A DNA stretch of 64,000 nucleotides from an uncultured Gemmatimonadota bacterium (GCA_964510615.1 CAZEBA010000006.1:33807-97806); one strand, 5' to 3'. Shown: positions 22,167-39,296, numbered from the stretch's first letter. Notes: a model not told the origin generated them from the letters alone. Translations and numbers: made by a program.

Positions 22167-22198
22167 GCGCTTTACAGGTAAAGCGCGACGGTAAAGCG
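22167..22198. promoter_or_regulatory. GTAAAG-motif operator-like site (palindrome plus direct repeat)
   Basis: GCGCTTTAC-ag-GTAAAGCGC palindrome, then a second GTAAAG 13 bp after the first. Confidence 0.6.
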
Positions 22199-22254
22199 AA
22201 CACGGCCTCGGGGCGCCTGGCGGCCGGTAATGCCAACCGGGCTTCCCGGGTCGA

Positions 22255-22283
22255 TTGAACTCGCCCGAAGGCCGAGGTATGTT
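22255..22283 (+). promoter_or_regulatory. sigma70-type promoter of the 2-oxoacid dehydrogenase operon
   Basis: TTGAAC-N17-TATGTT. Confidence 0.6.
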
Positions 22284-22318
22284 TTCCCGATTCATCACCT
22301 ACGAACGGAGCCTGCGAG

Positions 22319-23356
22319 TTGGCATCTCTGACACGGGAGCAGCTGCGCGATCTCTATCGCTACCTGCTGCTCACCCGGGGGCTCGAGGACCGGCTGGAGC
22401 GGCTGCTCCGGCAAGGGTTCTTCTGGGGCGGCCTGTATCGCAGCCTCGGACAGGAGGCGACGGCCGTCGGTGCGGCCGCTGCACTCGAGGCCGGGGATTG
22501 GCTGGCCCCTTCGCTTCGGGAGACCGGAGCCCTCCTGGTCCGCGGCGTGGAGCCGGTCCATCTCCTACGCCAGTACCTGGCTCGAGCCGGGTCGCCCTCC
22601 GGCGGAAAAGACAGCGCCTGCCACTTCTCGCTGCCTGAGCTGCACCTGCTCGGACCGATCGGTCCGCTCGGTCCGCAGCTCAGCGTGCTGGCCGGCGTGG
22701 CGTTGGCCCTGCGCCTGCGGCGGGAATCGCGCGTCTGTCTGACCTTTCTCGGGGACGGAGCCAGCCGTACGGGGGTCGCTCATGAGGGCTTCAACTTCGC
22801 CGCCGTGCAGCGGCTGCCGGTGGTGATCGTCCTCGTACACAACCGTTGGGCCTTCTCCACCCGCAGCGATCGCCAGGCCGCCGTCGACGACTGGCTGGAC
22901 GTCGCCGCCGCGTACGGTGTGCCAGCTGCCTCGGTCGACGGCAACGACGTGCTTCTCGTTCACGATGAGGTCCGGCGAGCCGTGGACCGCTCTCGACGCG
23001 GCGAAGGCACCATGATGGTGGTGGCGGAGACGTACCGGATGGCAGGTCACGCCGAACACGACCCGCAGTCCTATGTCGCCGGCGACGAGCTTGCCGCCTG
23101 GCGAGCCCGGGATCCGATCGACCGGCTCGAGACCTACCTTGTGGAGGCCGGCTTCGAGTCGCGAGCGGGACTGGCGGTCGTGAAGGAGTCCGTCCGCCGG
23201 GAGCTGGAAGCCGCCGTCGAGATGGCGCTTTCCTCGGAGATGCCGGAGCCCGAAGAAGCCAGATTCGGGACCTGGGCCGCCGACGCCGCCTCCGTTCCCT
23301 GGACACGATGCTCGCCGGTGTACGACGACCTGCAGGTGCCGAGGAGCGAGCGGTGA
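22319..23356 (+). CDS. 2-oxoacid dehydrogenase E1 alpha subunit (TPP)
   Basis: SLGQEA, GDGA TPP motif, VDGND, YRMAGHAEHD; TTG start. Confidence 0.9.
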   Translation: MASLTREQLRDLYRYLLLTRGLEDRLERLLRQGFFWGGLYRSLGQEATAVGAAAALEAGDWLAPSLRETGALLVRGVEPVHLLRQYLARAGSPSGGKDSACHFSLPELHLLGPIGPLGPQLSVLAGVALALRLRRESRVCLTFLGDGASRTGVAHEGFNFAAVQRLPVVIVLVHNRWAFSTRSDRQAAVDDWLDVAAAYGVPAASVDGNDVLLVHDEVRRAVDRSRRGEGTMMVVAETYRMAGHAEHDPQSYVAGDELAAWRARDPIDRLETYLVEAGFESRAGLAVVKESVRRELEAAVEMALSSEMPEPEEARFGTWAADAASVPWTRCSPVYDDLQVPRSER

Positions 23357-24402
23357 GCGAGCCGCGATCGGCCACGTCCCCGGCGATGCAGCGCGGCGCG
23401 AGATCCCCATCCGAAGCCGCCGTGGCGGAGACCACCTACCTCGAGGCGATCCGCCAGGCGATCTGGGAGGAGATGAAGACCGATCCGACCGTCTTCATCC
23501 TCGGCGAGGACATCGGAACCTACGGGGGTGCGTTCAAGATCACCGAGGGCTTCCTGGAGGAGTTCGGGCCGGAGCGGGTCATCGACACGCCGATATCCGA
23601 AGCGGCGATCGTGGGAGCCGCGATCGGGGCCGCAGCGATGGGCTTCAAGCCGATCGCCGAGATGCAGTTCATCGATTTCATCGCCCCGGCGTTCGACATG
23701 ATCGTGAACTTCGCCGCCAAGGTCCGATACCGAACGGGCGTTGGCGCGCCCCTCGTGATCCGCGGCCCGTGCGGAGGAGGAGCGAACGCCGGTCCTTTTC
23801 ACTCCCAGAACGTCGAGTCGTACTTCGCCAACGTCGCGGGCCTCAAGATGGTGGCGCCGGCGACGGCGTACGACGCCAAGGGCCTCCTGCGGGCGGCGAT
23901 TCGAGATCCCGATCCCGTGCTGTATTTCGAGCACAAGTACCTCTACCGCCGCGTCAAGGAGCCGTTGCCCACGGACGAGGAGATCTTCGTGCCGCTCGGG
24001 GTCGCCAGAACGCAACGGTCGGGCACCGATCTCACGCTGGTCACGTACGGCGCGATGCTGTACAAGGCCGAGGCGGCCGCGGAGCGTATCGCTGCGGACG
24101 ATGGCGCCGAGGTCGAGATTCTGGACCTTCGTACTTTGCGGCCACTCGACACGCCGGCGATCGTCGAGAGCGTGAAGAAGACCGGGCGGGTCCTGATCGT
24201 ACACGAGGCCCCGCGCTTCGGTGGCTTCGCGGGTGAGATCACGGCCCGGATCTGCGAGGAAGCCTTCGAGTGGCTGGATGCCCCGATTCGGCGCGTGACA
24301 GCCCTCGATACGCCCGTGCCGTACTCCCCGCCGCTGGAAGAATATTATCTGCCGCAGACCGAGGATATCGTGACGGCAGCCCGGTGGCTGCTCGCCTACT
24401 AG
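23353..24402 (+). CDS. 2-oxoacid dehydrogenase E1 beta subunit
   Basis: GEDIG, DTPISE, EMQFIDF, HSQ, DLRTLRP; start could be later (about 23422). Confidence 0.92.
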   Translation: MSEPRSATSPAMQRGARSPSEAAVAETTYLEAIRQAIWEEMKTDPTVFILGEDIGTYGGAFKITEGFLEEFGPERVIDTPISEAAIVGAAIGAAAMGFKPIAEMQFIDFIAPAFDMIVNFAAKVRYRTGVGAPLVIRGPCGGGANAGPFHSQNVESYFANVAGLKMVAPATAYDAKGLLRAAIRDPDPVLYFEHKYLYRRVKEPLPTDEEIFVPLGVARTQRSGTDLTLVTYGAMLYKAEAAAERIAADDGAEVEILDLRTLRPLDTPAIVESVKKTGRVLIVHEAPRFGGFAGEITARICEEAFEWLDAPIRRVTALDTPVPYSPPLEEYYLPQTEDIVTAARWLLAY

Positions 24403-24487
24403 GCAGAGGTATCGGCTTCTTCAAGGTCCGGGTGAGAGCGTCGTCCGCCGGGACCGAGCGGAAAACCTGAACAACGGAGAGGTCTCG

Positions 24488-25993
24488 ATGGCCAGGGTCG
24501 ATGTGATCATGCCCCAGATGGGCGAATCGATCGCAGAAGGAACCCTCACCCGGTGGATCAAGAAGGTCGGCGAGGCGGTCGAGCGCGACGAAGACTTGTT
24601 CGAGATCTCGACCGACAAGGTCGACGCCGACATTCCGTCTCCGGCCAGCGGCACCCTGGCCGAGATCCTCGTCGAGGAAGGGGAGACGGTGGAGGTGAAC
24701 ACCATCGTCGCGCGCATCGAGACGGAGAAGCAGGCGGAAGTCGCGCCCGAGCCGGCTACCGCCGAGGCACCTGCCGGCGCTGCTCCCGCTGAGCCAGCAA
24801 TCGCCGAGCCGGCTGCCGGCGCTGCTGCCACAGAGCCAGCTATCGCCGAGCCGGCTGCCATCGCGGCCGCCGCCACTGAGGCCACCCAGGAGCCGTCCGC
24901 CGGTCTCTCGCAGCCAGCACGGCGGACCGACGGTGACCGATCCGAGCCTGAGAGCAGGGAAGGGAGACTGCAGACCCGCTCTACGCCACTCGTCCGCAAG
25001 ATCGCGGCCGAACACGGGGTCGAGATCGCCCACGTCGAGGGCACGGGCATCGCCGGCCGCGTAACCCGCGACGACATCGTGGCGTTCATCGAGGCCCGCG
25101 ATGCGACCCCGCGCAAAGAGGCCGTGCAGACCACGACCACGCCGGCACCCGCGGCAGCGGCGGCTCCGGCCGCCTCCCCCGTAGCCCCTGCGCCCCCCGC
25201 CGCACCCGGGCCACCCGGTGTGCTCCTCCTACCGATCCACGGGACCACGCTCGAAGTCAAGATTCCGCGGGTGCCGATTCGCGAGGGAGACCGCGTCGAG
25301 GACATGAGCCGTGTCCGTCTCCGCACCATGGAACACATGCTGATGTCGCAGCACGTGTCGGCTCACGTGACCTCCGTTACGGAGATCGACTTCGAGCGAG
25401 TAGTCCAGCTACGCGGGAAGCTGAAGCCCAGGTTCGATGCCGAGGGCGCAAAGTTGACCTATGGCCCCTTCATCATGCGCGCCGTGGTCGAAGGCCTGAA
25501 GGCATATCCCATCCTCAACGCATCGGTCGATGGCACACGGATCATCTATCACGGAGACATCAACCTCGGCATCGCCGTCGCCATTGACGACGGGAGGGAA
25601 TTGATCGTTCCGGTGCTCAAGAACGCCGATCGCCTCAACCTCATGGGTCTGGCCGAGGGCGCCAACGCCCTGGCGGAGAAGGCACGGACCCGCACGCTCG
25701 ACTTCGATGACATCCAGGGTGGCACGTTCACCATCACCAACGTCGGCGTCTTCGGCAATCAGTTCGGGACGCCGATCATCAACCAGCCGCAGGTGGCGAT
25801 CCTCGGCACGGGTGTGATCGAGAAGCGCCCGGTGGTCGTGAAGGACGACATGGGGAGAGATGCCATCGGGATCCGCCACATGTCCTATTTCGGGCTCAGC
25901 TACGACCATCGTGTCGTCGACGGAGCGATGGCGGCGTTCTTCCTGAACAAGGTACAGGAGGTGCTCGAGAACTTCCCGGAGGACGCCGTTTGA
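24488..25993 (+). CDS. Dihydrolipoamide acyltransferase E2
   Basis: Lipoyl domain ISTDKV, PSBD GTGIAGRVTRDD, catalytic DHRVVDG. Confidence 0.93.
   Translation: MARVDVIMPQMGESIAEGTLTRWIKKVGEAVERDEDLFEISTDKVDADIPSPASGTLAEILVEEGETVEVNTIVARIETEKQAEVAPEPATAEAPAGAAPAEPAIAEPAAGAAATEPAIAEPAAIAAAATEATQEPSAGLSQPARRTDGDRSEPESREGRLQTRSTPLVRKIAAEHGVEIAHVEGTGIAGRVTRDDIVAFIEARDATPRKEAVQTTTTPAPAAAAAPAASPVAPAPPAAPGPPGVLLLPIHGTTLEVKIPRVPIREGDRVEDMSRVRLRTMEHMLMSQHVSAHVTSVTEIDFERVVQLRGKLKPRFDAEGAKLTYGPFIMRAVVEGLKAYPILNASVDGTRIIYHGDINLGIAVAIDDGRELIVPVLKNADRLNLMGLAEGANALAEKARTRTLDFDDIQGGTFTITNVGVFGNQFGTPIINQPQVAILGTGVIEKRPVVVKDDMGRDAIGIRHMSYFGLSYDHRVVDGAMAAFFLNKVQEVLENFPEDAV
24773..24856 (+). repeat. In-frame 42-bp tandem duplication in the E2 linker
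   Basis: gccggcgctgctcccgctgagccagcaatcgccgagccggct / gccggcgctgctgccacagagccagctatcgccgagccggct. Confidence 0.85.
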
Positions 25994-26041
25994 TCGCGGC
26001 CCGGTAGGCCCGGTAGCACACCGGCCGCGCCGTTCTCCTCC

Positions 26042-28417
26042 CTACTCGGGGCCGGCGCGTCTCAGCGCAGCGAACAGGAGCGGGAGGGTGGCAAGCGATT
26101 GCCCCCGGTACTGCGGACGGACGCCGAACAGGACGACCCGTCCCTTCCCGACGCCCACCTCGACCACCGCCGCCCGGCCGGATAAGTACTCCGACCCCTG
26201 CAGCCAGCCGCTCAGCAGCAGCGGCTCCGCTGCGTACCGGGCAACGGTCCGCACGCCGGAGCTGTCGACGGCCTCGAAAGCGGCTCCACCTTCCAGCCAG
26301 GCAGCCGTCTCCTTCGGTAGCCCATCGCCCATCCGGCTCCGCCGATCGATTTCGATCCGCACCAGCGATCCAGGAGCCGAGTAACCGACGCCCTCGAGGC
26401 CGGCGACGACATTCCGCACCGGCAGCTTGAGCTCTTCGATCACCCAATCGGCGGAACGATTCAGCGCTACCAGCGTTCCGCCACCCACCAGGAATTCTCT
26501 CAGCGCAGCTACGCCCGCCGCGGTCAGCCCCCCATCCATCCCCGGCGGAACCGAATCGGCCCCTCGCCCCTCGCGCAGGACATCCGTGGAGATGGAAGGA
26601 AGCAGCAGGCTGGTGAACCCGTCCAGCCGGCCCGAGTTGATCTCCTCGTTGTGAACCGTCGCGTACGAGACCCCGAAACGGTCGAAGATCCACCGGGTCC
26701 ACCCCTCATCGATGGAAGGATCCCACGGTTGGTAGAGCGCCACGCGGGTGGCGGATCCAGCCAGGCCGGCCGCCGCGGTCAGCGACCCGGGCAGGTGGGG
26801 AGCGGCCTTGACGGCCTCCGCCTCGACATCGATCGGCGCCTCGACCGCCACGGCCTCGACGCCGAACAGCAGCGGCAGCGAATGTGCGGTCACGTCGTAC
26901 GGCTCCAGGAGCGGACCTTCCTCGTACTGGCGGAGGTCCGGGTACCGTCCCGCTTCGAGAACCGCCTGGGCGAAAGCCGCATAGGGCTGCCGCATCTTTA
27001 CGATGTAGCTCCCTGCCGGGAACCTCCGGGCGACCGCGAGGAACGGTCGCTGCGCACGCTCCACTTCAACCCCGGCCCGCCGGAGCACGGTCACCAGCTC
27101 CACGACACCGATCTCGGGCCACGCCCGACGGTCACCGGCCGCTTCCAGCCCGCCGCCGGCCGCCTGGCCGCCATCAGCCGGAATCACCCAGGCGGCCGGC
27201 CAGCTGGACCATCCCGCCACCGCCCGTTCGCCGACCGCCAGGAAATTACGGAGCCACGTTTCCCGGTTGCGTGCCGCGTGCCGCAGCAGCGAGAACGCCG
27301 CCGCCTCCATGTAATCGACGATGTCGGCCAGCCTCCAGATTCCGCCCTCCCACGGCTCCGGGAAGTTCCACGACCGGGTCAGCGGATCGAAGCCCCGACG
27401 TCCCTCGAGCTCCTCCGGCCTCACCTCGAGGGGTGTGGCGAGCGTCGCGCTAGCGGTTTCGGAGAGCAGACGGACACCGGCATGGTAGTGCGGATAGGCT
27501 CGAGCGGGTGTCCAGGCGTCATAAATCGCATGGACGACGACTCCCTTCTTCCCCTCGCGGACGAGGCTCCACGCGATCTCCGTCCCCAGTGCATTCGCCG
27601 CCGAGATGAGCAGGGGATCTACGTTCGGCTCGATCGGATCCAGCCAGGGCGGCACGAAGAACCGGCTACCGTAAGAACCCTGCTGGTGAACGTCATGAAC
27701 GATCTGCGGGTGCCACGCATTGTGCACCCGGTCGACCGCCAGGCGCGTCTCGACCTGGGTGAAGGCGTACCAATCCCTGTTGTTGTCGTGTCCGACGTAG
27801 TGGTGATAGAGAAAGGGCGGCGATGCACCCTCCCACGGCGTCCCCACGGAACGACGGTACCAGTCCACCACCAAGTCCACTCCGTCGGGATTCAGGGAAG
27901 GAACGAGCAACACCACCGTGTTTTCCAGGATCTCCCGGGTCTCCGGGTCATCCGAGCTCGCGAGCCGGTAGGCCATGCGAAGCGGTAGCTGGCTACTGCC
28001 GACCTCGGTGGAGTGGATCGAACACGTGATCAGGACGATCGTCCGTCCCGCCCGAATCAGCGCCTCGCGGTGTACCGAGTCCCGAATCCGCCGCGGATCG
28101 GCCAGCTCCGCCTGCACCTCTCGCAGATGCTCGAGCGCTGCGAGGTTCGATGGCTCGCTGATCGTCACCAGCACGAACGGGCGGCCGAGCGTCGTCGCTC
28201 CGAGGGTGTCGAGCCGGACCCGATCGCTCGACGCGGCCAGCTCCGATAGATAACCGGTGATCTCCGTCCAGTCGGCCAGGCGTCGATCCGCTCCCACGGG
28301 GTAGCCTAGATACTCCCGCGGCGAGGGCTGCGCACCGGCGAAGGCCGCGGATGTGAGCCAGACGGCCACGGCGAGCGCCCCGACCGCAGGCGGGCCCGGC
28401 CTCGAGATGGTCCTCAC
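26042..28417 (-). CDS. Secreted M14 zinc carboxypeptidase-family protein
   Basis: Signal peptide ending AFAGAQ, IHSTE, LNPDG, DNNRD, DVHQ; GTGA overlap with HAD gene. Confidence 0.85.
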   Translation of the reverse strand: MRTISRPGPPAVGALAVAVWLTSAAFAGAQPSPREYLGYPVGADRRLADWTEITGYLSELAASSDRVRLDTLGATTLGRPFVLVTISEPSNLAALEHLREVQAELADPRRIRDSVHREALIRAGRTIVLITCSIHSTEVGSSQLPLRMAYRLASSDDPETREILENTVVLLVPSLNPDGVDLVVDWYRRSVGTPWEGASPPFLYHHYVGHDNNRDWYAFTQVETRLAVDRVHNAWHPQIVHDVHQQGSYGSRFFVPPWLDPIEPNVDPLLISAANALGTEIAWSLVREGKKGVVVHAIYDAWTPARAYPHYHAGVRLLSETASATLATPLEVRPEELEGRRGFDPLTRSWNFPEPWEGGIWRLADIVDYMEAAAFSLLRHAARNRETWLRNFLAVGERAVAGWSSWPAAWVIPADGGQAAGGGLEAAGDRRAWPEIGVVELVTVLRRAGVEVERAQRPFLAVARRFPAGSYIVKMRQPYAAFAQAVLEAGRYPDLRQYEEGPLLEPYDVTAHSLPLLFGVEAVAVEAPIDVEAEAVKAAPHLPGSLTAAAGLAGSATRVALYQPWDPSIDEGWTRWIFDRFGVSYATVHNEEINSGRLDGFTSLLLPSISTDVLREGRGADSVPPGMDGGLTAAGVAALREFLVGGGTLVALNRSADWVIEELKLPVRNVVAGLEGVGYSAPGSLVRIEIDRRSRMGDGLPKETAAWLEGGAAFEAVDSSGVRTVARYAAEPLLLSGWLQGSEYLSGRAAVVEVGVGKGRVVLFGVRPQYRGQSLATLPLLFAALRRAGPE

Positions 28418-29244
28418 GGCCCAGCCGCGGCCAGGAGGCGGGGCAGCTCCCGCACGGAATCGATCACCGCATGCGGCTCCGCCGGCGCCCCAAGGCCGGG
28501 TGCCCGTCCTCTCCCGCGCCCCGCGCGTGACTTCCCGGTGCGCACCTGGACCACGATCAGGCCGGCCCGCCGTCCACCCGCGATGTCGGCCTCGGGATCG
28601 TCCCCGACCACGGCGATGCGGTTCGCGGGTAGCCCGAGGCTGGCCGCTGCCAAGTCGAAAAACGGCCGTGCGGGCTTTCCGACCAGCTCGGCCGCGGTTC
28701 CGGCCGCCTCCTCCAGTGCGGCGACGAAGGGGCCAGCGTCCAGCGTGGGCCCCGCTTCCGTCAGCCAATACCGGTTCCGGTGCATCGCCACCAGACGCGC
28801 CCCGCCGAGCAGGCTGCGGAACGCCGCGTTGAGGGTCTCGAACGTGAACCCTGGACCCAAGTCCCCGACCACCACCGCTTCCGGCCCCGAGTCCGTGATC
28901 TCGAATCCCGGGAAGTCCTGCCGCACCGACTCTGGCGCCAGCAGCTGGATTCGGGTGACACCGGTCTTCTCGAGGTGGTGAGCGGCCGCCACGGTAGCCG
29001 TAAGCACATCCCGTTCGTCCACCTGGAATCCCAGGTCGCGAAGCTTCTCTGCCACCGCACGGCGGGACATCCGGCTCGTGTTGGTCGCGAGCCGCAGCGG
29101 CAGTCGCTCCTTCAGCTCTGCCAGCGCGCCCGCCGCTCCCCGTACCGGCTGCCCGGCCTCGTGGAGGGTGCCGTCGATGTCCAGCAGGACTCCGCCCACC
29201 GGGGGCAACCGATCCAGGGTTTCTTCCATAACATCCGGCACCAA
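28414..29244 (-). CDS. HAD-IIA hydrolase (HDHD2/LHPP-like)
   Basis: DIDGT, TNT, GKP, GDDPEAD, TGK. Confidence 0.9.
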   Translation of the reverse strand: MVPDVMEETLDRLPPVGGVLLDIDGTLHEAGQPVRGAAGALAELKERLPLRLATNTSRMSRRAVAEKLRDLGFQVDERDVLTATVAAAHHLEKTGVTRIQLLAPESVRQDFPGFEITDSGPEAVVVGDLGPGFTFETLNAAFRSLLGGARLVAMHRNRYWLTEAGPTLDAGPFVAALEEAAGTAAELVGKPARPFFDLAAASLGLPANRIAVVGDDPEADIAGGRRAGLIVVQVRTGKSRAGRGRGRAPGLGAPAEPHAVIDSVRELPRLLAAAGP

Positions 29245-29496
29245 GCCTCACCTTCGCTCGACAACGGGCCGCTCTGCTCCGGCGCCCTCGCCGCCAGAGC
29301 CGGGTACACGGACAGCCGGCGCCCACGCCCTTTGCGCCGGCCAACCGGACCGCGAGGCTAAGCTAGGCGGCCCTGCAGGCTGAGCAAGGCGCGGCGGCAG
29401 CTCCCTGGTTTCGCCTACGGGGCTGGTTCGAACCTCACCGGCCCGGATATTATCGCCGCCCAGGAACCGCGATTCGCCTGATCACGGAGGTCCGGC

Positions 29497-30732
29497 GTGC
29501 CCCGAATACTCCCGACCGCCTCTCTCCGATACGCTCCGAGAGCAGGCGACCCGAGCCACCTGCTGGCACCACCCTACGACGTGATCGATGCAGAGGAGGC
29601 GAACCGGCTCAGGGCTCGAAGCCCGTACAACGCGGTCCGGCTCATTCTGCCAGAGGGTGGGTCGCCCGACCGTTACGCGGCGGCTGCCCGAACGATGCAG
29701 GAGTGGATCGATGCCGGCATTCTGTCCCGCTCCGATCGCGACGCCAGCTGGATCTACTCTCAGGCGTTCCGACACGGCGATCGGCGATTCGTCCGCCGCG
29801 CCCTCCTCGCCGCCGTGGAGCTGGTTCCGTTCGACCGGGGGCAGGTCCTGCCTCACGAGCGAACGCACCGGGGCCCCAAGGAAGATCGGCTCGCTCTGAT
29901 GACGGCGTGCCGAGCCCAGCTTTCCCCCATCTTTCTCATCGCCCGCGACCCGCTGCGTGCTCTGGGGGGGCTGATCCAGGCGGCAGCATCCGCTCCCCCG
30001 GCCCTCGACACGCAAACGGAGGACGGCAACGAGCACAGGCTCCATGCCGTCCCTCCCGAACTGGAAGGAGAGATCCTCGGGGCGGCCGGCGCCGACGGTC
30101 TGTTGATCGCCGACGGCCACCACCGCTACGAGACAGCGCTCGCCCTAGCCGGGCGACTGCCTGCGCGGCCGGCCGCGGGTGCGGTGCTCGCGGCCATCGT
30201 GAGCCAGCACGACCCGGGCCTTCTCATTCAGCCGACGCATCGTCGACTCACAGGCCTTCCACAAGGCTGGCGACGGGATCTCCTGAGCCTCTTCGAGGCT
30301 GAACGCGGTCCATCCGACCCCGCCGCTCTCGCTGCTGTCGTTGCCGACGCGGGCCCATCCGCGATCGGCGTCGCCTCGGCGCCCGGCGTCACTTCGTCCG
30401 GACTCCTGCTGCGAGTCCGCAGCGGCGCCGCGGCTGAGGCCGCGCTATCGGCGACCGAGGCGGGGCTGGCGTGTCTCCTGTTCGACTCCCTGATTCTGAG
30501 GCGCATCATGGGTGGAGATGCGGATTCAGCCGCCGCGGCCCGAGCACTCTCCTACCAGCAGGATCCCGCCGCGGCACCGCCGGCGCCCGACGAGGGGGAT
30601 GCGCTCTTCCTCCTACCGCCGGTCCCCGTAGACCGCCTCTGGGAGGTGGCCCAGCACGGCCGCCGCCTGCCGCCGAAGTCCACCTTCTTTTCCCCCAAGA
30701 TCCCTTCCGGCCTGCTCTTCCGACCGCTCTGA
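29497..30732 (+). CDS. DUF1015 family protein
   Basis: APPYDVI, PHERT, IADGHHRYETA, PPKSTFFSPKIPSGL. Confidence 0.88.
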   Translation: MPRILPTASLRYAPRAGDPSHLLAPPYDVIDAEEANRLRARSPYNAVRLILPEGGSPDRYAAAARTMQEWIDAGILSRSDRDASWIYSQAFRHGDRRFVRRALLAAVELVPFDRGQVLPHERTHRGPKEDRLALMTACRAQLSPIFLIARDPLRALGGLIQAAASAPPALDTQTEDGNEHRLHAVPPELEGEILGAAGADGLLIADGHHRYETALALAGRLPARPAAGAVLAAIVSQHDPGLLIQPTHRRLTGLPQGWRRDLLSLFEAERGPSDPAALAAVVADAGPSAIGVASAPGVTSSGLLLRVRSGAAAEAALSATEAGLACLLFDSLILRRIMGGDADSAAAARALSYQQDPAAAPPAPDEGDALFLLPPVPVDRLWEVAQHGRRLPPKSTFFSPKIPSGLLFRPL

Positions 30733-30744
30733 GCGAGCACCCGC

Positions 30745-31206
30745 TCAACCATCCATGAACTCGTGCAGGCTGATGATCTCCATGCCGGCGACCCGCCGAA
30801 GTGCCGTCTTGTAGGTGACATATGCCCTTGCGCCCCCGACGAGTCCCGTCGCGAGGTGCAGCGCTCGCTCCGCCGAGCCGCCGAGCCGTGCCCTTACCTC
30901 CGCCGCCTGCCGGGCGATCTCTCCCGTCACGGGAACGACCTCCAATCCAGCTAGCCCGCCGAGGTAGCGGAACGCCTGAGCCGCGACCTCCTCCTCGCCT
31001 CTCCGATACGGCTCCGCCAGGAGTTGATAGAAGGAGAGAGCCGACGTCTGTGCACGGATGCGCTCCTCCCTAACTGCAGCAAACACTAACCTTGTGAGCT
31101 CAACAACCGGCGCATTACCTATTAGATGATAGGCTATAACGGATGCATCTAGGTGGATTCGTCGTGCCTCCTCGAGTGAAACCTGAAATGCGGCGCGCCT
31201 AGCCAC
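30745..31206 (-). CDS. vapC: PIN-domain toxin (VapC family)
   Basis: IHLDASVIAY ... ALHLATG; GTG start overlaps the antitoxin stop. Confidence 0.75.
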   Translation of the reverse strand: MARRAAFQVSLEEARRIHLDASVIAYHLIGNAPVVELTRLVFAAVREERIRAQTSALSFYQLLAEPYRRGEEEVAAQAFRYLGGLAGLEVVPVTGEIARQAAEVRARLGGSAERALHLATGLVGGARAYVTYKTALRRVAGMEIISLHEFMDG

Positions 31207-31414
31207 CGACCTCGGACCACGACGCTGTGCCGAGCCCCGCAAACAACCCTTCCAACTCGGCGGCCAGGTCCTCGGGCTGTCGCTCCAGTTCGATCACTCC
31301 GCCAGGCCGCACCGTCACCAGCAACCGGTCCCCAGGTTCGAGGGCGAGCGCGGCCCGCGCCTCGCGTGGAATGACGATCTGGTTCTTGCTGCTCATCTTG
31401 ACGGACACGGACAT
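31199..31414 (-). CDS. AbrB/MazE/SpoVT-family antitoxin
   Basis: KMSSKNQIVIPREARAALALEPGDRL; AAGGAG RBS. Confidence 0.88.
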   Translation of the reverse strand: MSVSVKMSSKNQIVIPREARAALALEPGDRLLVTVRPGGVIELERQPEDLAAELEGLFAGLGTASWSEVGG

Positions 31415-31463
31415 CGGTCCCGAGCTCCTTGAGCGGAAGGGAATCGGTCGGCAAGAACGGCGC

Positions 31464-31492
31464 AACCTAACCTTTACAGGACCGCTTTACAA
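31464..31492 (-). promoter_or_regulatory. TA operon promoter overlapped by a GTAAAG-N7-GTAAAG repeat
   Basis: Minus strand TTGTAA-N17-TAGGTT containing GTAAAG cggtcct GTAAAG. Confidence 0.6.
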
Positions 31493-31521
31493 GCAACCGC
31501 GCCGCCGCGAGCGGTGGAGAG

Positions 31522-32526
31522 TCAGACCCGCCAGATTACCGTGTAGATAAAGACGCCGTACATCAGCAAGAGAGCGAGCCCCTCGCCGCGATTCACCTGC
31601 CGACCCGTGTAGGCCAGCGGGATGAGGACGACACAGAAGAAGAGCGCGGGGACTACCTGCCGGACGACGACTTCCGGTGGAAGGCGGAGGGGATTCAAGA
31701 GAGCCGCCGCACCCAGCACGAGCCCCAGGTTGAAGACGTTGGAGCCGATGATGTTGCCGATCGCGATATCACCCAAGCCGCGAGCGGCGGCGGCGACGGT
31801 CGACGCCAGCTCCGGGATCGACGTGCCGACCGCCACCATCGTCGCTCCTATCACCTCCTCCGGCACCCGAAACGCCCGGGCGATCGCCACCCCGGAGTCG
31901 ACGAGAAAATGGGCTCCGGCCAGCAGCGCGACCAGACCCAGGATCGTCCGCACCCAGAGACCGACCAGCGAGGGATGAGCGGCCGGTTCGTCGGCCATCC
32001 CCGCAGTCAGGCCTTCCGTGCCGACACCGAGCGGCGTGCCACCGCTCGGCGCGTCCAGGCCCGGCGCGCCGCGGAAGACGCCCGTTCCTTCCATGTGAAG
32101 CATGAAGATCAGATAGACGAGGAAGCCGCCCGTCAGCGCCAGGCCGTCCAGCCGGCCGAGAGCATCGTTCCACGACAGCAGCATCACGATCAGAAGGACG
32201 AAGATGAGCAGCGGGCTCTCCCGAACGAGGAGGCGTCGTTTGACCGCGATCGGACGAATGAGGGCGCCGAGGCCCGCGATCAGACCGACGTTGGCGACCG
32301 TCGATCCCATGACGTTGCCGACGGCGAGACCCGGCTGGCCCCGCAAGGCGGCCAGGCCGCTGACGAAGAGTTCCGGCGCTGACGTGCCGAACGCTACCAC
32401 GGTCAGCCCGACCACCAAGGGGCTGACTCCCAGGCGGGCGGCCGCCCTCGACGAGCCGGTGACGAGCCAATCCGCACCGAAGGTGATCGCGAGAAGCCCC
32501 GCGACAAACAGGAGGGAGTGGCTCAC
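31522..32526 (-). CDS. yrbG: Ca2+/Na+ antiporter (YrbG family)
   Basis: Two alpha-repeats GTSAPE...GNVMGS and GTSIPE...GNIIGSN. Confidence 0.92.
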   Translation of the reverse strand: MSHSLLFVAGLLAITFGADWLVTGSSRAAARLGVSPLVVGLTVVAFGTSAPELFVSGLAALRGQPGLAVGNVMGSTVANVGLIAGLGALIRPIAVKRRLLVRESPLLIFVLLIVMLLSWNDALGRLDGLALTGGFLVYLIFMLHMEGTGVFRGAPGLDAPSGGTPLGVGTEGLTAGMADEPAAHPSLVGLWVRTILGLVALLAGAHFLVDSGVAIARAFRVPEEVIGATMVAVGTSIPELASTVAAAARGLGDIAIGNIIGSNVFNLGLVLGAAALLNPLRLPPEVVVRQVVPALFFCVVLIPLAYTGRQVNRGEGLALLLMYGVFIYTVIWRV

Positions 32527-33079: not shown

Positions 33080-33130
33080 GTGGTCTCCCTCGGCTTTCCC
33101 GCTCCGTACCAGATGAGCCGGCTCGGCCGG

Positions 33131-33907: not shown

Positions 33908-33908
33908 C

Positions 33909-34790
33909 TCAGAGATCCGCGGTCGAGACGCCCGCCAAGACCAGGAGCAGCCGATCGAAGTCTTCGGCATCGTGGAACACGACCCGAATCTCTCCGCCCG
34001 CCTCTCCGGTCAACCGCACCTGCACCTCGGTTCCCAGAGCTCGCTCCAGAGCCTGCTGCGCCCGCCGCAGGTGGGGGTCGTCCTTGGCAGTGGGGCGCGG
34101 TCCGGCCCGCGGCGAGGGGGCGGACGGCTGTCGGAGCTTCTGCGCGCGCCGCTCTGTCTGCCGGACCGACAGGCCACGGGACACCACCTCATCCGCCAAT
34201 ACCTGCTGCGCCGAGTCTCCACGCACGCCCAGGATCGCACGCGCGTGGCCGGCGCTCAGTGCTCCTGAATGCACCATGTCCTGAACCCGCATCGGCAGCG
34301 TGAGCAGCCGAAGCGCGTTCGCCACCGTCGACCGGTCCTTCCCCACCTGATTGGCGATCCGCTGCTGGGTCATCCCGAAATCGTCGGCCAGCTGCTGGTA
34401 GCTTCGCGCCTCTTCCAGCGGCGAGAGCGCCTCCCGCTGCAGGTTCTCGACCAGCGCCACCAGGAGCATCTGCTCGTCCGCAAGGTCTCGGACGATGACC
34501 GGTGCCGTCTTCCACTCCAGTGCCTGCAGCGCGCGCCATCGGCGTTCCCCGGCCACCAGCTGCCAGCTGGCGTTCTTACTCCGAACGACGAGCGGCTGCA
34601 GGAGACCGTGCTCCCGGATCGAGGCGACCAGCTCGGCCAGTGACTCCTGCGAGAGCGAGCGTCGCGGCTGGTACGGGTTGGGGCTGAGATCCTCCAGCGG
34701 GACCTCGAACTCCGCGCCGTCGACGACATCGAGATGCTCCCCCAGGAGGGCTCCGAGGCCCCTTCCCAGCCGCTCGTCGTTCCTAGCCAA
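33909..34790 (-). CDS. parB: Chromosome partitioning protein ParB
   Basis: LGRGLGAL, NPYQPR, GERRWRA, ENLQRE, HTH. Confidence 0.96.
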   Translation of the reverse strand: MARNDERLGRGLGALLGEHLDVVDGAEFEVPLEDLSPNPYQPRRSLSQESLAELVASIREHGLLQPLVVRSKNASWQLVAGERRWRALQALEWKTAPVIVRDLADEQMLLVALVENLQREALSPLEEARSYQQLADDFGMTQQRIANQVGKDRSTVANALRLLTLPMRVQDMVHSGALSAGHARAILGVRGDSAQQVLADEVVSRGLSVRQTERRAQKLRQPSAPSPRAGPRPTAKDDPHLRRAQQALERALGTEVQVRLTGEAGGEIRVVFHDAEDFDRLLLVLAGVSTADL

Positions 34791-35568
34791 CTTTCCGCTT
34801 CGGCTCGTCGCGCTCGATCAGCTCGTTCGCCAGGCTCAGATAGCCGCGAGCACCGGTGGAGAGCACGTCGTACAAGGCGATCGGCTTGCCGAAGCTCGGA
34901 GCTTCGGCCAGGCGGATGTTCCTCGGTATCATCGTGTCGAAGACCTTCCGACCGAAGTACTCGCGCGCCTCCGCCGCGACCTGCTTCGACAGGTTGAGAC
35001 GCGAGTCGTACATCGTGAGCAGTACGCCCTCGATCTGGAGATCCGGGTTGATGTTACGCTGAACCAGCCGGACCGTGTTCAGTAGCTGACTCAAACCTTC
35101 GAGCGCGTAGAACTCGCACTGAATCGGGATGATGACGGAGTCCGCGGCCGTCAGTGCGTTGATGGTGAGCACGCCCAGCGATGGGGGAGAATCGACGAGG
35201 ACGTAGTCGTAGGCGCCTCGGACCGACTCGAGCGCGCGCCGCAGGCGCCGATTCCGATTGGGCCTCTCCACCAGCTCGACCTCCGCACCGGCCAGATCCC
35301 GGCTGGCGGGGGCCACGTCCAGGTAGGGGAAGTGGACCTCGTGATGAATGGCGTCCGCCAGGGGTTTCCCTTCGACCACACACTCGTAGACGGAAAGCCG
35401 GTTGCCATCCTTGCGGATCCCGAATCCGCTCGTCGCGTTTCCTTGGGGATCGCAATCCAGAACCAGGGTCCTCCGTTCCGCAATGGCGAGCGAGGCGCCC
35501 AGGTTGATGGCGGTCGTGGTCTTCCCTACGCCGCCCTTCTGGTTCGCGATCGAGATGACTCGACTCAT
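34783..35568 (-). CDS. parA: Chromosome partitioning ATPase ParA/Soj
   Basis: NQKGGVGKTT, DPQGN, QCEFYALEG, EAPSFG. Confidence 0.97.
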   Translation of the reverse strand: MSRVISIANQKGGVGKTTTAINLGASLAIAERRTLVLDCDPQGNATSGFGIRKDGNRLSVYECVVEGKPLADAIHHEVHFPYLDVAPASRDLAGAEVELVERPNRNRRLRRALESVRGAYDYVLVDSPPSLGVLTINALTAADSVIIPIQCEFYALEGLSQLLNTVRLVQRNINPDLQIEGVLLTMYDSRLNLSKQVAAEAREYFGRKVFDTMIPRNIRLAEAPSFGKPIALYDVLSTGARGYLSLANELIERDEPKRKVG

Positions 35569-35763
35569 CGGCTCCTCTGCGCGGTCAACCGGCGGGCTTC
35601 CGTGTCACCTCGACCATCCTCGGGCGGAACCGGGGGGCGCGCGAGCCGGACGATCTCTGGACTCTTCGAGTCAAGGACAGTTTCTGACCGCCAGTTGTTG
35701 AGGACGGATGTTCGGGACGGGGAAGAATATAGAACCGGGCCGCCAGCCGCGCCAAGCGGCGCT

Positions 35764-35779
35764 CGTTTCACGTGAAACA
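35764..35779. promoter_or_regulatory. parS centromere site 1
   Basis: CGTTTCACGTGAAACA, one mismatch to TGTTTCACGTGAAACA. Confidence 0.9.
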
Positions 35780-35793
35780 CATCGATCCACGAT

Positions 35794-35802
35794 TGTGGAA
35801 AA
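35794..35802 (-). promoter_or_regulatory. DnaA box between the parS sites
   Basis: TTTTCCACA on minus strand fits TTWTNCACA. Confidence 0.5.
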
Positions 35803-35905
35803 CCGCCTACTCTCACTCGGCACTGTGGGTTACACCACTTTGGGCCCTGCGCGACATCCGGGCGCCAGCGGCGCGTCCGCGGTCAAGGTGCGAGGCGACC
35901 CCCGC

Positions 35906-35921
35906 TGTTTCACGTGAAACA
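35906..35921. promoter_or_regulatory. parS centromere site 2
   Basis: Perfect TGTTTCACGTGAAACA. Confidence 0.95.
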
Positions 35922-35983
35922 ATCCGACACCGGCGAAGCCGCGCGCAGGTGCGATGGGCCGACCGCTCCTGGAGATGGCGCCG

Positions 35984-37861
35984 CTACGGGCTCGCCAGCG
36001 CCCGCTTTCTCAGCTCCACAAGCAAGTTTTGCAGGTCGGCTGGGGAGATTCCCGGAATCCGCCCCGCTTGTCCGAGGGTGTCCGGACGTACGCGGGCCAG
36101 TTTCTGCCTTGCCTCGACCGAGAGCGTGGTCATATCGAGGTAGGGAGCGTCGATCGGTAGTGACATCTCCTCCCGTCGGCGCATCATCTCGACACGTTCA
36201 CGTTCCCGGCTCAGGTACCCCTCGTACTTGAGCTCCATCTCGACCAGCGTGAGAACGTCTGGCTCAAAGCCCTCGCCGTCCAGAGGCCCTCCGTCTCCGA
36301 CGAGGCCATCCAGGCTGACCTGCGGGCGCTTCAGCACCTCCCCCAGCGGCCGCGGCTGCACGAGGGCGGACGTGCCGCACTCCGCGAGATGCCCGTTCAC
36401 CTCCTCCGGCCGGAGGGAACGGGTGCGTGCCCAGCTACGGGCCCGCTCCAAGTCATCCAGAAAGCGGCCCATGCGTCGCCGCTCCTCCTCCACCAGGAGG
36501 CCGAGCCTCTCGGCCAGCGGCCCGAGCCGCTGCAGGCAGTTGTCCTGGCGCAACGTGAGCCGGAACTCGGCTCGCGACGTGAACAGTCGGTACGGCTCGT
36601 CCACGCCGCGCGTAACCAGGTCGTCGATCAGGACGCCGAGATAGGCTTCGTCGCGCGCCGGCACCCACGGCTCTCTCTCGAGGGAGGCCAGGCCGGCGTT
36701 GATGCCAGCCACCAGCCCCTGTCCGGCTGCCTCCTCGTACCCGGTCGTCCCGTTCACCTGGCCCGCCAGGTAGAGTCCGCGGAGGCCCTTGAGCGCCAGC
36801 GTCCGCTCCAGCTGCTGCGGCGGGAAGTAGTCGTACTCGATCGCGTAGCCTGGCTGTGTCATCCGAGCCCTTTCCAATCCGGGCACGCAAGCGAGGAACT
36901 CTCGTTGCACATCCGGCGGCAGTGACGTCGACAAGCCGTTCACGTACAGCTCGCTCGTCTCGCGGCCCTCGGGCTCCAGGAACAGTTGGTGACTGGCCGC
37001 GTCCGGGAACTTGTGGATCTTGTCCTCGATCGAGGGACAGTACCGAGGGCCCGGCCCGCTGATGGCCCCACCGTACATGGCGGATTGGGAGATGTTCTCT
37101 TCCACGATCCGGCAAACGGCCGGACCGGCTTCGCCGATCCAGCACGGAAGCCGCTCCAGTCCCGGGCTCCACTCCCAGTGGGAGAAGCGAGACGGCCCGC
37201 TCTCGCTCTCCTGACGTCTCAGCTTGCTGAAATCCACCGTCCGGCCGTCCACCCGAGGTGGCGTTCCCGTCTTGAACCGCGCGCTCTCGAGACCGAGATC
37301 GAGCAGCTGCTCGGCCAGGGCGATGGACGGCGCGTCGCCGACGCGGCCGGCGGCGATCGATCGCGACCGCCCCATCTTGATGCTCCCCCTCAGGAACGTG
37401 CCGGCCGTCAGCACGACGCGCCGCGCCCGAAAGCCGCTACCGTCCGTGCACATCACGCCCGCTACCCGATCAGCCTCGAGGAGGATGCCCGCCACCATGC
37501 CCTGGTAGAGCGCGAGTCGCTCTCGCTCCTCCAGCAGGCTCCGAATGGCGCGCGGGTATTGGCCCCGGTCACACTGGGCCCTGGGTGCCCACACGGCAGG
37601 GCCCTTGGAGCGGTTCAGCATCCGGAAATGCAGCGTGCACCGATCCGTCGCGCGGCCCATCAGCCCGCCCATGGCGTCCACCTCGCGCGCCACCGTTCCC
37701 TTCGCGATGCCTCCGATGGCCGGATTGCACGACATCTGGCCGACCCGGCCCAGATATCCCGTGATCAGGAGCGTCGTCGCGCCGAGCCGGGCGGCGGCGT
37801 TGGCGGCTTCGCACCCTGCATGCCCTCCTCCGATCACGATCACGTCGTGGGTGTCGCTCAT
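35984..37861 (-). CDS. mnmG: tRNA uridine-5-carboxymethylaminomethyl modification enzyme MnmG (GidA)
   Basis: GGGHAG, MSCNPAIGG, GPRYCPSIEDK, GTTGYEEA, SRAEFRL; alternative start at 37918. Confidence 0.96.
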   Translation of the reverse strand: MSDTHDVIVIGGGHAGCEAANAAARLGATTLLITGYLGRVGQMSCNPAIGGIAKGTVAREVDAMGGLMGRATDRCTLHFRMLNRSKGPAVWAPRAQCDRGQYPRAIRSLLEERERLALYQGMVAGILLEADRVAGVMCTDGSGFRARRVVLTAGTFLRGSIKMGRSRSIAAGRVGDAPSIALAEQLLDLGLESARFKTGTPPRVDGRTVDFSKLRRQESESGPSRFSHWEWSPGLERLPCWIGEAGPAVCRIVEENISQSAMYGGAISGPGPRYCPSIEDKIHKFPDAASHQLFLEPEGRETSELYVNGLSTSLPPDVQREFLACVPGLERARMTQPGYAIEYDYFPPQQLERTLALKGLRGLYLAGQVNGTTGYEEAAGQGLVAGINAGLASLEREPWVPARDEAYLGVLIDDLVTRGVDEPYRLFTSRAEFRLTLRQDNCLQRLGPLAERLGLLVEEERRRMGRFLDDLERARSWARTRSLRPEEVNGHLAECGTSALVQPRPLGEVLKRPQVSLDGLVGDGGPLDGEGFEPDVLTLVEMELKYEGYLSRERERVEMMRRREEMSLPIDAPYLDMTTLSVEARQKLARVRPDTLGQAGRIPGISPADLQNLLVELRKRALASP

Positions 37862-38003
37862 CTCGTCGAGCCTTTCCTCCTCGTCCTCATGGAGCCACAT
37901 TCGCCCCTGGTCGGCCATCGAATATCGTCGGCCGTCTCGGGTTGCGCAGCCGCCACCGCGCCGAAGCGCCGCCCGCGACGCGCCCTACCCGTGGGTGGCT
38001 CGG

Positions 38004-38312
38004 ATGTACCCCCGTGACACGGCCGGTGCCGGAAATGCCCAAGAAGCCAGCAGAGGGCTGATCCTCAGAGGCCGCGTACAGGGCGTCGGATTCCGCTGGT
38101 GGGTCCGGGAGGCGGCTCTCCAGGTTGGCGTGCGGGGAACTGTTCGCAACCTCTCGGACGGCGCCGTCGAGGTCCTTGTGGCCGGCTCGGCCGATCTGGT
38201 TACCGATTTTCTCGACAGGGTGCGCCAGGGACCCCCGAACGCCCGAGTGGAGTCGGCACTCGAGATCCCCTGCCGCGAGCCGCTTCCGCAAGGCTTCCGT
38301 ATCCGGTTTTGA
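38004..38312 (+). CDS. acyP: Acylphosphatase
   Basis: GRVQGVGFR, GTVRNLSDGAVE; start uncertain. Confidence 0.88.
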   Translation: MYPRDTAGAGNAQEASRGLILRGRVQGVGFRWWVREAALQVGVRGTVRNLSDGAVEVLVAGSADLVTDFLDRVRQGPPNARVESALEIPCREPLPQGFRIRF

Positions 38313-38417
38313 CAGCGCTATCGGAAGGCGGCTCGGCACTTTCCCGAACATCCGGTGTATCCTCGTCGTCTCGCTTTCGACGGGCGTCTGCCTACCCGTG
38401 TCTTCGGAGGTGGTGAG

Positions 38418-39212
38418 GTGATAGAGCTTCCCGATGTCGAGCGGATGATCGAGGGGTTCTCCGGATACGCCACCGGCAAGACCATTTCGGCCGTTCTCAT
38501 CGACGATGCAAGCGTGGACGTGGATCCGAAGCTCGCCCGGTCGAAGATCGAGTCGCACGCAATCGACGCCGTCGAGCGGCACGGCAGGAACGTGGTCCTC
38601 CGCTTCCGGTCGGAATACAGCCTCATCTTCGACATGGGGGACGAGGGCCGGATCTATCTCGAGTCGCAGACGGTTCCGCCGGACGACAGCAGCTGCATCC
38701 GCCTTCAGTTCGCGGCCGGCCGAGAGCTTCGCTTCGATGCGCCCGGCACTCGTGACACCGTACGCCTGGTGGAGGGCAGCGATCTCTCCGCGATCGGCGG
38801 GCCGGAGAGCCTCGGCGTGGACCCGCTCAGTGACGAGCTGACCGTCGAGAAGTTCCTGGAGATCGCAGCGGCCCACCCACGTAGCTCGCTCAAGGGCTTC
38901 CTGATGCATCCGGCCGCCATCGCCGGCATCGGGAACGAGTACGCCGATGAGATCTGCTTCCAGGCCGGCTACCGCCCCGACCTCCGCGTCGGACAGATGA
39001 CGCAGCGCCAGCTCGAGCGCGTCCACCTCTATCTCCGCCGCGTTCTTCGAAGAGCGACGCTGCACTGGCAAGCCGCCCACGCGGATCCCGGCTGGCTGAT
39101 CAACCACCGAGCCAACGGGTCCGCCTGCCCCCGCTGCAGCACCGAGTTGACGACCATCAAGCTGAGTGGTCGGAAGACCTACGTTTGCGTGCGCTGCCAG
39201 AGGGCTGCCTAG
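38418..39212 (+). CDS. Fpg/Nei-family DNA glycosylase-like protein (atypical N-terminus)
   Basis: M-IELPDVE start, LGVDPL, H2TH GIGNEYADE, zinc finger CPRC...CVRCQ. Confidence 0.85.
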   Translation: MIELPDVERMIEGFSGYATGKTISAVLIDDASVDVDPKLARSKIESHAIDAVERHGRNVVLRFRSEYSLIFDMGDEGRIYLESQTVPPDDSSCIRLQFAAGRELRFDAPGTRDTVRLVEGSDLSAIGGPESLGVDPLSDELTVEKFLEIAAAHPRSSLKGFLMHPAAIAGIGNEYADEICFQAGYRPDLRVGQMTQRQLERVHLYLRRVLRRATLHWQAAHADPGWLINHRANGSACPRCSTELTTIKLSGRKTYVCVRCQRAA

Positions 39213-39238
39213 GAGAACCCGTCGCCGTCGCCCGACAC

Positions 39239-39280
39239 CTTTACTGCCACGTAAAGCTGACGTAAAGCGGCAAGGTAAAA
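39239..39280. repeat. Cluster of GTAAAG/CTTTAC motifs between convergent genes
   Basis: CTTTAC 39239, GTAAAG 39251, GTAAAG 39262, GTAAAA 39275. Confidence 0.7.
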
Positions 39281-39296
39281 CCATTCCGCCGTCATC

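Follow-up and report, generated by a model that had tools for sequence, protein, structure and literature searches.

GTAAAG half-site pairs at an AbrB-type vapB-PIN promoter and at 2-oxoacid dehydrogenase operons suggest a domesticated toxin-antitoxin regulator in a Gemmatimonadota family

Introduction

The VapBC toxin-antitoxin (TA) modules of known structure, VapBC2 of Rickettsia felis (PDB 3ZVK) and the VapBC of enteric bacteria and Shigella, have an AbrB-type antitoxin gene that precedes the PIN-domain gene and an operator at the module's own promoter. In the R. felis complex, two AbrB-type VapB dimers are described as contacting base pairs (bp) 3–12 and 17–26 of the DNA, about 14 bp apart from center to center (PMC3326315), and the enteric complex is described as having two VapC dimers that bridge a pair of VapB dimers, one VapB dimer per operator half-site (PMC3378870). 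Here we analyze a gene pair of the same layout, vapB-PIN, in a 64,000-nucleotide stretch of DNA from an uncultured Gemmatimonadota bacterium (GCA_964510615.1, CAZEBA010000006.1:33807-97806; hereafter the window, numbered from its first letter), together with a recurring element, GTAAAG-N7-GTAAAR, found at the promoter of the pair and before a 2-oxoacid dehydrogenase operon. Comparative analysis indicates that GTAAAG is probably the half-site of an operator of this AbrB-type VapB, used at its own promoter and in a small metabolic regulon by a domesticated VapB/pseudo-VapC repressor complex.

The locus resembles the solved systems in its gene layout, in the operator-like element at its own promoter, and in having two candidate half-sites, one for each VapB dimer, about 12–14 bp apart from center to center, here as read from the sequence. 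The solved operators, as far as the published accounts describe them, are AT-rich palindromes, whereas the half-sites here are GTAAAG hexamers in a GC-rich genome and mostly form direct repeats. Further differences from the solved systems are the vertical inheritance and synteny of the pair, the replacement of two catalytic Asp positions and the presence of extra conserved sites at metabolic genes. MraZ and AbrB share with VapB a swapped-hairpin AbrB-type domain, recognize short repeated half-sites and tolerate direct repeats; they are stand-alone proteins without a PIN partner, and the MraZ repeats have a period of about 10 bp versus 13 bp here.

Regulation by a TA pair that is not toxic has one published precedent: MtvT/MtvA, encoded on a plasmid of Pseudomonas aeruginosa, is described as inactive and non-toxic, and its complex as binding the promoters of other genes (PMC11826091). 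The pair studied here would likewise be a TA-like transcription regulator with a non-toxic "toxin." MtvTA is, by its description, plasmid-borne, known from one strain and tested experimentally, whereas the present pair is chromosomal and family-wide, with a bipartite operator and a metabolic regulon that we infer. HigA2 of Mycobacterium tuberculosis is described as an antitoxin with targets beyond its own operon (PMC11205783). MqsA and HigA2 are like the VapB proposed here in serving as transcription factors for additional genes; they have helix-turn-helix folds, and their extra targets are reported from single strains, whereas the evidence here is positional conservation over many species. 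Within the Gemmatimonadota, vapC is reported to be commoner in marine lineages (PMC11596202). A search of the literature on VapB/AbrB operators, antitoxin regulons and Gemmatimonadota VapC, which left most subscription journals outside its reach, found no description of a GTAAAG operator or regulon.

Occurrence of the GTAAAG pair

The window contains three copies of the motif: GTAAAGCGCGACGGTAAAG at 22178-22196 (+; site 1), GTAAAGCGGTCCTGTAAAG at 31472-31490 (−; site 2) and GTAAAGCGGCAAGGTAAAA at 39262-39280 (+; site 3). All three have the 13-bp period and the CG after the first hexamer that an initial annotation of the window, made from its sequence, had reported, and the additional inverted CTTTAC it had noted is present at two of them (22170-22175 and 39239-39244). 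Against these three matches to GTAAAG-N7-GTAAAR, shuffling the window 100 times with its dinucleotides preserved yielded a mean of 0.00 (0/100 with any match), and the single hexamer GTAAAG occurs 14 times where 3.76 ± 1.95 were expected. The same annotation had proposed a genome-wide scan, which we carried out on the draft genome of the bacterium (3,310,234 bp, 68% GC; the window is part of contig C6). Only four sites were found in the 3.3 Mb, and the sole one outside the window lies on another contig (C30:8522-8540). Among direct GTAAAR pairs no more than 60 bp apart in the genome, 13 was the only spacing that recurred (four times), the other four spacings each being seen once. Exact GTAAAG-N7-GTAAAG occurs just three times, one further copy has a single mismatch (site 3), and 19 have two mismatches, the last mostly intragenic. 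Inverted CTTTAC-N6-GTAAAG pairs number two, one within site 3 and the other at C30:10037-10054. The pairing of GTAAAG hexamers is therefore real and far beyond chance. Apart from the vapB promoter and site 3, all sites of this genome fall in two 2-oxoacid dehydrogenase operons.

The motif was then followed among relatives. In a set of 41 genomes (our own, 24 others of its family and 16 of a sister family), GTAAAG-N7-GTAAAG was found in 24/24 family genomes, at one to four sites per genome (76 sites with our own), and in 0/16 of the sister family, while a reversed control pattern had matches in 2 of the 41 genomes. The 13-bp period held in all exact direct sites, and the stricter pattern GTAAAGCG-N5-GTAAAR was present in 11/11 genomes of the same genus. 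The inverted pattern accounted for 20 sites in 12 of the 25 family genomes and none in the 16 of the sister family (control, two genomes). A phylum-wide sample of 301 genomes (our own, 22 of the family and 278 others) contained the motif in 21/22 family genomes, in addition to our own, versus 10/278 of the others; the control pattern was commoner in the latter (34/278), so that the motif outside the family is at background level.

The operator-like element at the vapB promoter

Site 2 (GTAAAG-cggtcct-GTAAAG; 31472..31490, −) lies between a Ca/Na antiporter gene (31522-32526) and a MazE/AbrB-type gene, vapB (31199..31414, −), which is followed by the PIN gene. A terminator-like hairpin (31497..31510, −), 3′ of the antiporter gene, is directly upstream of the site. 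The site overlaps a putative vapB promoter (31464..31492, −) composed of TTGTAA (31492-31487), a 17-nucleotide (nt) spacer and TAGGTT (31469-31464).

Conservation of this element was assessed with a VapB-alignment scan of one genome per species (186 relatives), from which the best 80 loci were taken, 79 of them with upstream DNA. The exact motif was present within 220 bp of the vapB start in 58/79 of these best species loci, with one mismatch in 6 more and with two mismatches in another 6, and it occurred once per 5-kb vapB locus. At further loci of the family, both hexamers were intact upstream of vapB and in gene orientation in 16/18, the exceptions having GATAAG in one case and a reversed element in the other. 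When the 58 loci were aligned on the motif, TT preceded the first repeat in 37–40 and T-A-n-n-T-T stood two bases after the second repeat in 35–37, columns that give a promoter of the form TTGTAA-N17-TAnnTT. In several species the vapB start codon follows the −10 element by 6–7 nt, as in a leaderless messenger RNA. The conserved bipartite element thus overlaps the predicted −35 element and spacer in most species; because the operator covers this region, the bound complex is predicted to repress vapB-PIN. The initial annotation had placed this copy over the abrB-vapC promoter, as expected for TA autorepression, and the comparison supports an operator-like element there.

Overlap with the promoter, together with the resemblance of the reversed hexamer CTTTAC to a −35 element, could also mean that the paired hexamers are themselves promoter elements of an alternative sigma factor. 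The pairs occur in both orientations relative to the downstream gene and in an inverted form, and site 3 lies between convergent genes. Bipartite promoters of the −35/−10 type, with a 16–18-nt spacer, or of the −24/−12 type do not fit identical hexamers 13 bp apart. To this explanation we give virtually no credence.

The VapB and PIN proteins

VapB is a 71-amino acid (aa) AbrB/SpoVT-type DNA-binding protein whose gene has an AAGGAG ribosome-binding site upstream. It matches Pfam MazE_antitoxin (PF04014, 3.3e-8) and, over residues 5–45, the AbrB domain model TIGR01439 (5.8e-11; 41.9 bits vs a cut-off of 28.3). The AlphaFold2 model of the monomer is of moderate confidence (predicted local distance difference test score, pLDDT, 75.5). 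In an alignment of 23 VapB orthologues, the N-terminal segment V-K-x-S-S-K-H/N-Q-I-V-V-P is nearly invariant. Covariation of VapB residues with operator positions 7–8 was uninformative, since this DNA-binding segment scarcely varies and the columns with the highest mutual information lie outside it and track phylogeny.

The PIN partner, a VapC-like protein of about 153 aa (30745..31206, −), probably starts at the GTG at 31206; the longest open reading frame (ORF) begins at TTG 31242 and defines the residue numbering used here. The PIN ORF overlaps the end of vapB, which is the antitoxin-toxin gene layout of VapBC. The protein matches the Pfam PIN family (PF01850, 29.3 bits vs a cut-off of 23.6), and its AlphaFold2 model is of high quality (pLDDT 92.3). 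In a Foldseek search the best PDB match of this model was VapC2 of the DNA-bound R. felis VapBC2 complex (3ZVK_A), followed, after one CbCas9-PcrIIC1 chain, by the VapC proteins of Shigella, the F plasmid and Salmonella, all partners of an AbrB-type VapB. The search returned 29 PDB chains at E ≤ 0.001, and among the 28 matches listed all have the VapC/PIN fold except 8wmm_G, the CbCas9-PcrIIC1 chain. At the sequence level both proteins are distant from the solved VapBC: the PIN sequence had no match among PDB sequences at E < 0.1, and the VapB profile found AbrB/SpoVT N-domains only weakly (E ~0.003), its top matches, to polyubiquitin, being repeat artifacts.

The canonical acidic set of PIN domains (Asp, Glu, Asp, Asp/Glu) is incomplete in this protein, the third and fourth positions being replaced. 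Among 76 orthologues, D32 and E77 are conserved (96%), and Arg occupies the third Asp position (R126) in 96%; the fourth position, in the T-x-D motif, is K146 here and variable among orthologues. In hhalign comparisons with four canonical PIN proteins encoded elsewhere in our genome, their D-A-L-H/Q aligns with R-A-L-H. From these replacements the PIN partner looks catalytically inactive, and it is probably a corepressor or sensor rather than a toxin.

A PIN orthologue is present in single copy in 23/24 of the other family genomes, the one miss being a genome that is 71% complete, and the sister family gave weak matches only (2/16). In the phylum sample, PIN was found in 21/22 family genomes, with two weak matches elsewhere. 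The initial annotation had suggested comparing relatives with and without the TA pair; the comparison shows that motif and vapB-PIN share a family-limited distribution. The order antiporter (NaCaX)-vapB-PIN is retained at 75/80 of the best species loci, with a convergent DUF1015 gene next in 49/80, and the antiporter|vapB spacer carries the direct repeat in 11/12 genomes of the genus. This synteny indicates that the pair is vertically inherited and not mobile; the patchy, mobile distribution usual for addiction modules is not seen. One co-occurrence of motif and pair is independent of the family: in G258, which belongs to another family and is one of the two genomes with a weak PIN match, the exact motif lies directly upstream of a distant vapB-PIN homologue in a different gene neighborhood.

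Dehydrogenase operons and other distal sites

Site 1, in its full extent CTTTAC-ag-GTAAAG-cgcgacg-GTAAAG (22170..22196, +), lies between a YgfZ/GCV_T-like gene (21095-22132) and a 2-oxoacid dehydrogenase operon (22319..25993, +) and combines the direct repeat with a palindrome of 9-bp arms (GCGCTTTAC/GTAAAGCGC). The operon encodes E1α (22319-23356; Pfam E1_dh), E1β (23308-24402; Transket_pyr/Transketolase_C) and E2 (24488-25993; 2-oxoacid_dh with lipoyl and E3_binding domains). By NCBIfam, E1β scores above the cut-off of the pyruvate dehydrogenase E1β subfamily, and E1α and E2 fall under the equivalog cut-offs. A candidate promoter for the three genes (22255..22283, +), with TTGAAC (22255-22260), a 17-nt spacer and TATGTT (22278-22283), is indicated by conservation: in the alignment of E1α upstream regions from 12 genomes of the genus, our own included, the invariant columns are essentially GTAAAGCG, GTAAAG, ATTG.A and GTAT.TT, which correspond to the operator and the −35/−10 pair. 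The flanks diverge between the 12 genomes and the hexamers stay invariant.

The direct repeat stands between YgfZ and E1α in 12/12 genomes of the genus. In other genera the same YgfZ|E1 spacer carries the inverted form, CTTTAC-N6-GTAAAG(CG), about 19–25 bp upstream of a −35-like TTGAxx. It was found before the E1 operon in 8/10 genomes fetched from other genera (one of the others has a single half-site and one has none) and in 0/3 genomes of the sister family. Both architectures occupy the same spacer: G013 and G019 also have the inverted form and G017 has the direct one, and a site of one or the other precedes the E1 operon in 23/25 family genomes. The suggestion of the initial annotation that the AbrB-type antitoxin also binds upstream of the 2-oxoacid dehydrogenase genes is strongly backed by this comparison, since the sites are family-specific and co-distributed with the pair. 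Between the E2 and DUF1015 genes, at 26042-29344 (−), lies a gene whose 1100-aa product has an M14 carboxypeptidase domain and a region weakly resembling the N terminus of biotin-protein ligase.

ORF and Pfam analysis showed that the fourth site belongs to a second dehydrogenase operon on contig C30, with the gene order E1α, E1β, E2, lpd, lipB. The direct repeat (C30:8522-8540) lies between lpd and lipB, and the inverted pair (C30:10037-10054) between E2 and lpd. The lpd|lipB repeat is present in 12/12 genomes of the genus, and inverted E2|lpd sites occur also in G009, G012 and G014. In several relatives of the genus (spacers L064, L067, L004 and L009), the lpd|lipB spacer has, beyond the GTAAAG repeat and before the start of lipB, another conserved palindrome of the CTCTACCTGTACAGCTGTACAAGTAGAG type, at which some other regulator may bind; an element of this type was not seen in our own lpd|lipB spacer. 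A second route of lipoylation besides lipB is encoded at 56636-61461, where gcvH and two gcvP subunit genes are followed by a lipoate-protein ligase gene (LplA/B-type); no GTAAAG pair was found at this glycine-cleavage cluster.

Further sites were found in relatives. A direct repeat between a thiolase gene and an SPFH/Band-7 gene is present in 11/12 genomes of the genus, our own being the one without it (spacer of 26 bp). In other genera, sites lie between a PDZ protein gene and LuxE-LuxC, between an α-oxoamine synthase-GNAT-like gene pair and an epimerase-PAP2 pair, between a class-V aminotransferase-like gene and a gene for a 130-aa membrane protein, and between queG and a fabF-like gene. 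The theme of the targets is acyl-CoA, lipoate and lipid metabolism by gene content, and membership differs between genera. An intragenic copy in luxC, which encodes W-V-K-x-x-G-K-V, occurs in four genera (L071 4429-4447, L072 2501-2519, L052 4634-4652, L182 2001-2019) and keeps the codons GTA, GGT and AAA, which by the usage of our own genome are rare in their families (4.4%, 10.5% and 7.6%); retention of rare codons points to selection on the DNA itself. Two of the lipid clusters are present here: one encoding PAP2, an epimerase and a GNAT-like N-acyltransferase, at 451-3436 of the window, and one encoding the PDZ protein, LuxE and LuxC, at 28.6-32.2 kb of C6, just left of the window. Neither the GNAT-like|epimerase spacer nor the PDZ|LuxE spacer contains GTAAAG in our genome. 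Clusters that carry the operator in other genera and lack it here suggest that the regulon has been rewired between genera.

This variable membership, with the thiolase|SPFH site missing here, and the position of site 3, which is flanked by convergent genes, has no evident target and is partly decayed in relatives, would be expected if VapB acted on its own promoter only and the other copies were non-functional, either as relics of TA insertions or as repeats due to chance or composition that synteny has preserved. We consider this very unlikely. The shuffles gave no match and the control patterns almost none; the hexamers are invariant amid diverging flanks in 12 genomes; the E1-operon site is retained nearly family-wide in two architectures; and the luxC copy keeps its rare codons. 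A whole-genome tblastn search at E ≤ 1 returned the two genes themselves and four weak unrelated matches on other contigs, with no VapB or PIN remnant near the other sites. The alternative offered in the initial annotation, scars of a mobile TA cassette, fails on the same result, on the long conservation of the sites and on the synteny of the pair.

Site 3 and the origin region

Site 3 in its full extent is CTTTAC-N6-GTAAAG-N5-GTAAAG-N7-GTAAAA (39239..39280, +), in which CTTTAC (39239-39244) and GTAAAG (39251-39256) precede the direct repeat. It lies in the 84-bp spacer between fpg (38355-39212) and mnmE (39297-40682), whose convergent 3′ ends flank it. Ten relatives of the same genus have one GTAAAG in the fpg|mnmE spacer with CTTTAC (G009) or CTTTGY (the nine others) 6–7 bp upstream; the added direct repeats are confined to our own genome, and three other genera have no element in this spacer. 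G016, a genome from a different genus, has an exact direct repeat after fpg, and the next gene there is a DUF1207 gene, of which our genome has no homologue by tblastn at E ≤ 1e-20. Site 3 is probably a remnant of the control region of a former target, and its persistence in the genus leaves room for a present function.

The surroundings of site 3 include an origin-proximal gene set (33909-46578) of parB, parA, mnmG, fpg, mnmE, yidC, rpmH, dnaA (43744-45126) and dnaN, and three of the four sites of our genome are within 22 kb of dnaA, beside parAB, mnmG, mnmE and yidC. The initial annotation had offered an origin-proximal DNA-binding system as one possibility. On that reading, a partition, replication or nucleoid protein would bind the repeats near oriC, or they would serve to organize the chromosome. 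A relative assembled as one contig (G009, 2.96 Mb) has four direct-repeat sites at 0.31, 1.615, 1.624 and 2.20 Mb; its fpg/dnaA region is near 1.607 Mb. This dispersal indicates that the clustering in the window reflects conserved synteny; moreover, the fourth direct site and the inverted site of our genome lie in the second operon on another contig, and other genera have their sites at lipid and dehydrogenase genes in other places. A chromosome-organizing role is thus extremely unlikely. An oriC, DnaA or ParB-type origin element was rejected on the site positions, which do not cluster; no search was made for DnaA-box or parS consensus sequences, and oriC was not located. Near dnaA, between yidC and rpmH, a two-mismatch relative of the motif, GTAAAGTGGCGCGGGCAAG (43232-43250, +), is directly upstream of a minus-strand start codon, and its first half resembles the GTAAAGTGG class found before luxE in other genera.

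Proposed mechanism

In the model we favor, VapB would most likely bind as part of a VapB4-(PIN)4 hetero-octamer, with one half-site for each VapB dimer. Half-sites would be used in two layouts, direct and 13 bp apart (GTAAAG-N7-GTAAAG) or inverted and 12 bp apart (CTTTAC-N6-GTAAAG), and both distances fit the geometry of the solved VapB-DNA complexes. Each symmetric AbrB dimer may be able to sit on GTAAAG in either orientation, which would account for the use of both architectures. At its own promoter the complex, bound over the −35 element and spacer, is predicted to repress vapB-PIN in an autoregulatory loop. The same complex is predicted to occupy the sites before the YgfZ-adjacent E1α-E1β-E2 operon and at E2|lpd and lpd|lipB, and in relatives also the thiolase|SPFH site and those of lipid-synthesis genes. 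Through these sites the level or state of VapB would be coupled to the expression of genes for 2-oxoacid dehydrogenase, lipoylation and acyl lipids, in a positive or a negative sense at the distal sites.

Several observations weigh against this model. The 3′ end of the site 1 operator is 58 nt upstream of the E1α −35 element in our own genus, the distal operators do not overlap a recognizable core promoter, the lpd|lipB and thiolase|SPFH sites are in reverse orientation, and site 3, between convergent 3′ ends, is not in a promoter position. A sigma-70 consensus scan called 0 promoters at sites 1–3 (the E1α candidate, with 8/12 matches, was not called), and the promoter assignments are therefore drawn from conservation. 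Among the sequence records listed for 21900-31700, the four that contain all or part of this stretch are DNA contigs, with no RNA run among them. At 9/79 vapB loci the motif has three or more mismatches. As to the PIN partner, D32 and E77 remain conserved, and three of the four hhalign runs were of low probability (one reached 82%), though the local match was the same. Finally, the co-distribution of motif and pair at the family level is essentially one evolutionary event plus G258.

Because of this last point, a different family-specific DNA-binding protein could be the one that reads the GTAAAG pairs, with vapB-PIN as the most conserved member of its regulon. Such a protein would suit the distal sites, which are placed as for an activator or a roadblock and not as for a classic antitoxin repressor. 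It would also suit the direct-repeat architecture, the operators in solved VapB complexes being palindromes. Set against these points, no DNA-binding gene except vapB adjoins any conserved class of site; the vapB site is the most widely conserved and follows a distant vapB homologue in G258; and the spacing fits VapB4C4 geometry. We regard another binder as unlikely, while giving it serious weight.

Known regulators of other types were also considered. Regulators of such operons, PdhR and BkdR, are encoded by a GntR- or Lrp-type gene beside the operon and use a palindromic or AT-rich operator. The ORF and Pfam surveys found no regulator gene beside either dehydrogenase operon; PdhR and BkdR operators were not compared. 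OmpR/PhoB-type boxes are direct repeats with a period of about 10–11 bp, and were rejected because every exact site here has a 13-bp period and the motif exists in an inverted form as well.

Discussion

The role of chromosomal TA pairs is the subject of a long-running dispute, and claims that an antitoxin regulates other genes come mostly from single strains. The case made here rests on evolution: a single operator word in two architectures, conservation at the pair's own promoter in dozens of species, family-wide conservation at the same metabolic operons, and a partner "toxin" that lacks catalytic residues. The fourth site, the inverted operator form and the degenerate PIN active site had been missed by the initial annotation.

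A fuller version of the model can be put forward tentatively, as a prospect we rate a little short of even. In this version the TA module is fully domesticated: an AbrB-type VapB and a catalytically dead VapC, the latter a bridging corepressor or sensor, would form a two-protein transcription factor, inherited vertically throughout the existence of the family, that recognizes GTAAAG half-sites in both orientations and controls both dehydrogenase operons, lipB and, in other genera, acyl-lipid genes. A "selfish" module would then have turned into a regulator of core metabolism whose regulon is conserved.

The proposal offers a concrete, testable example of the domestication of a TA module into a metabolic regulator, and a first candidate regulon in the Gemmatimonadota, a phylum that has received little study. 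The operator it defines, GTAAAG-N7-GTAAAG or CTTTAC-N6-GTAAAG, is simple and open to testing with a protein of 71 aa.

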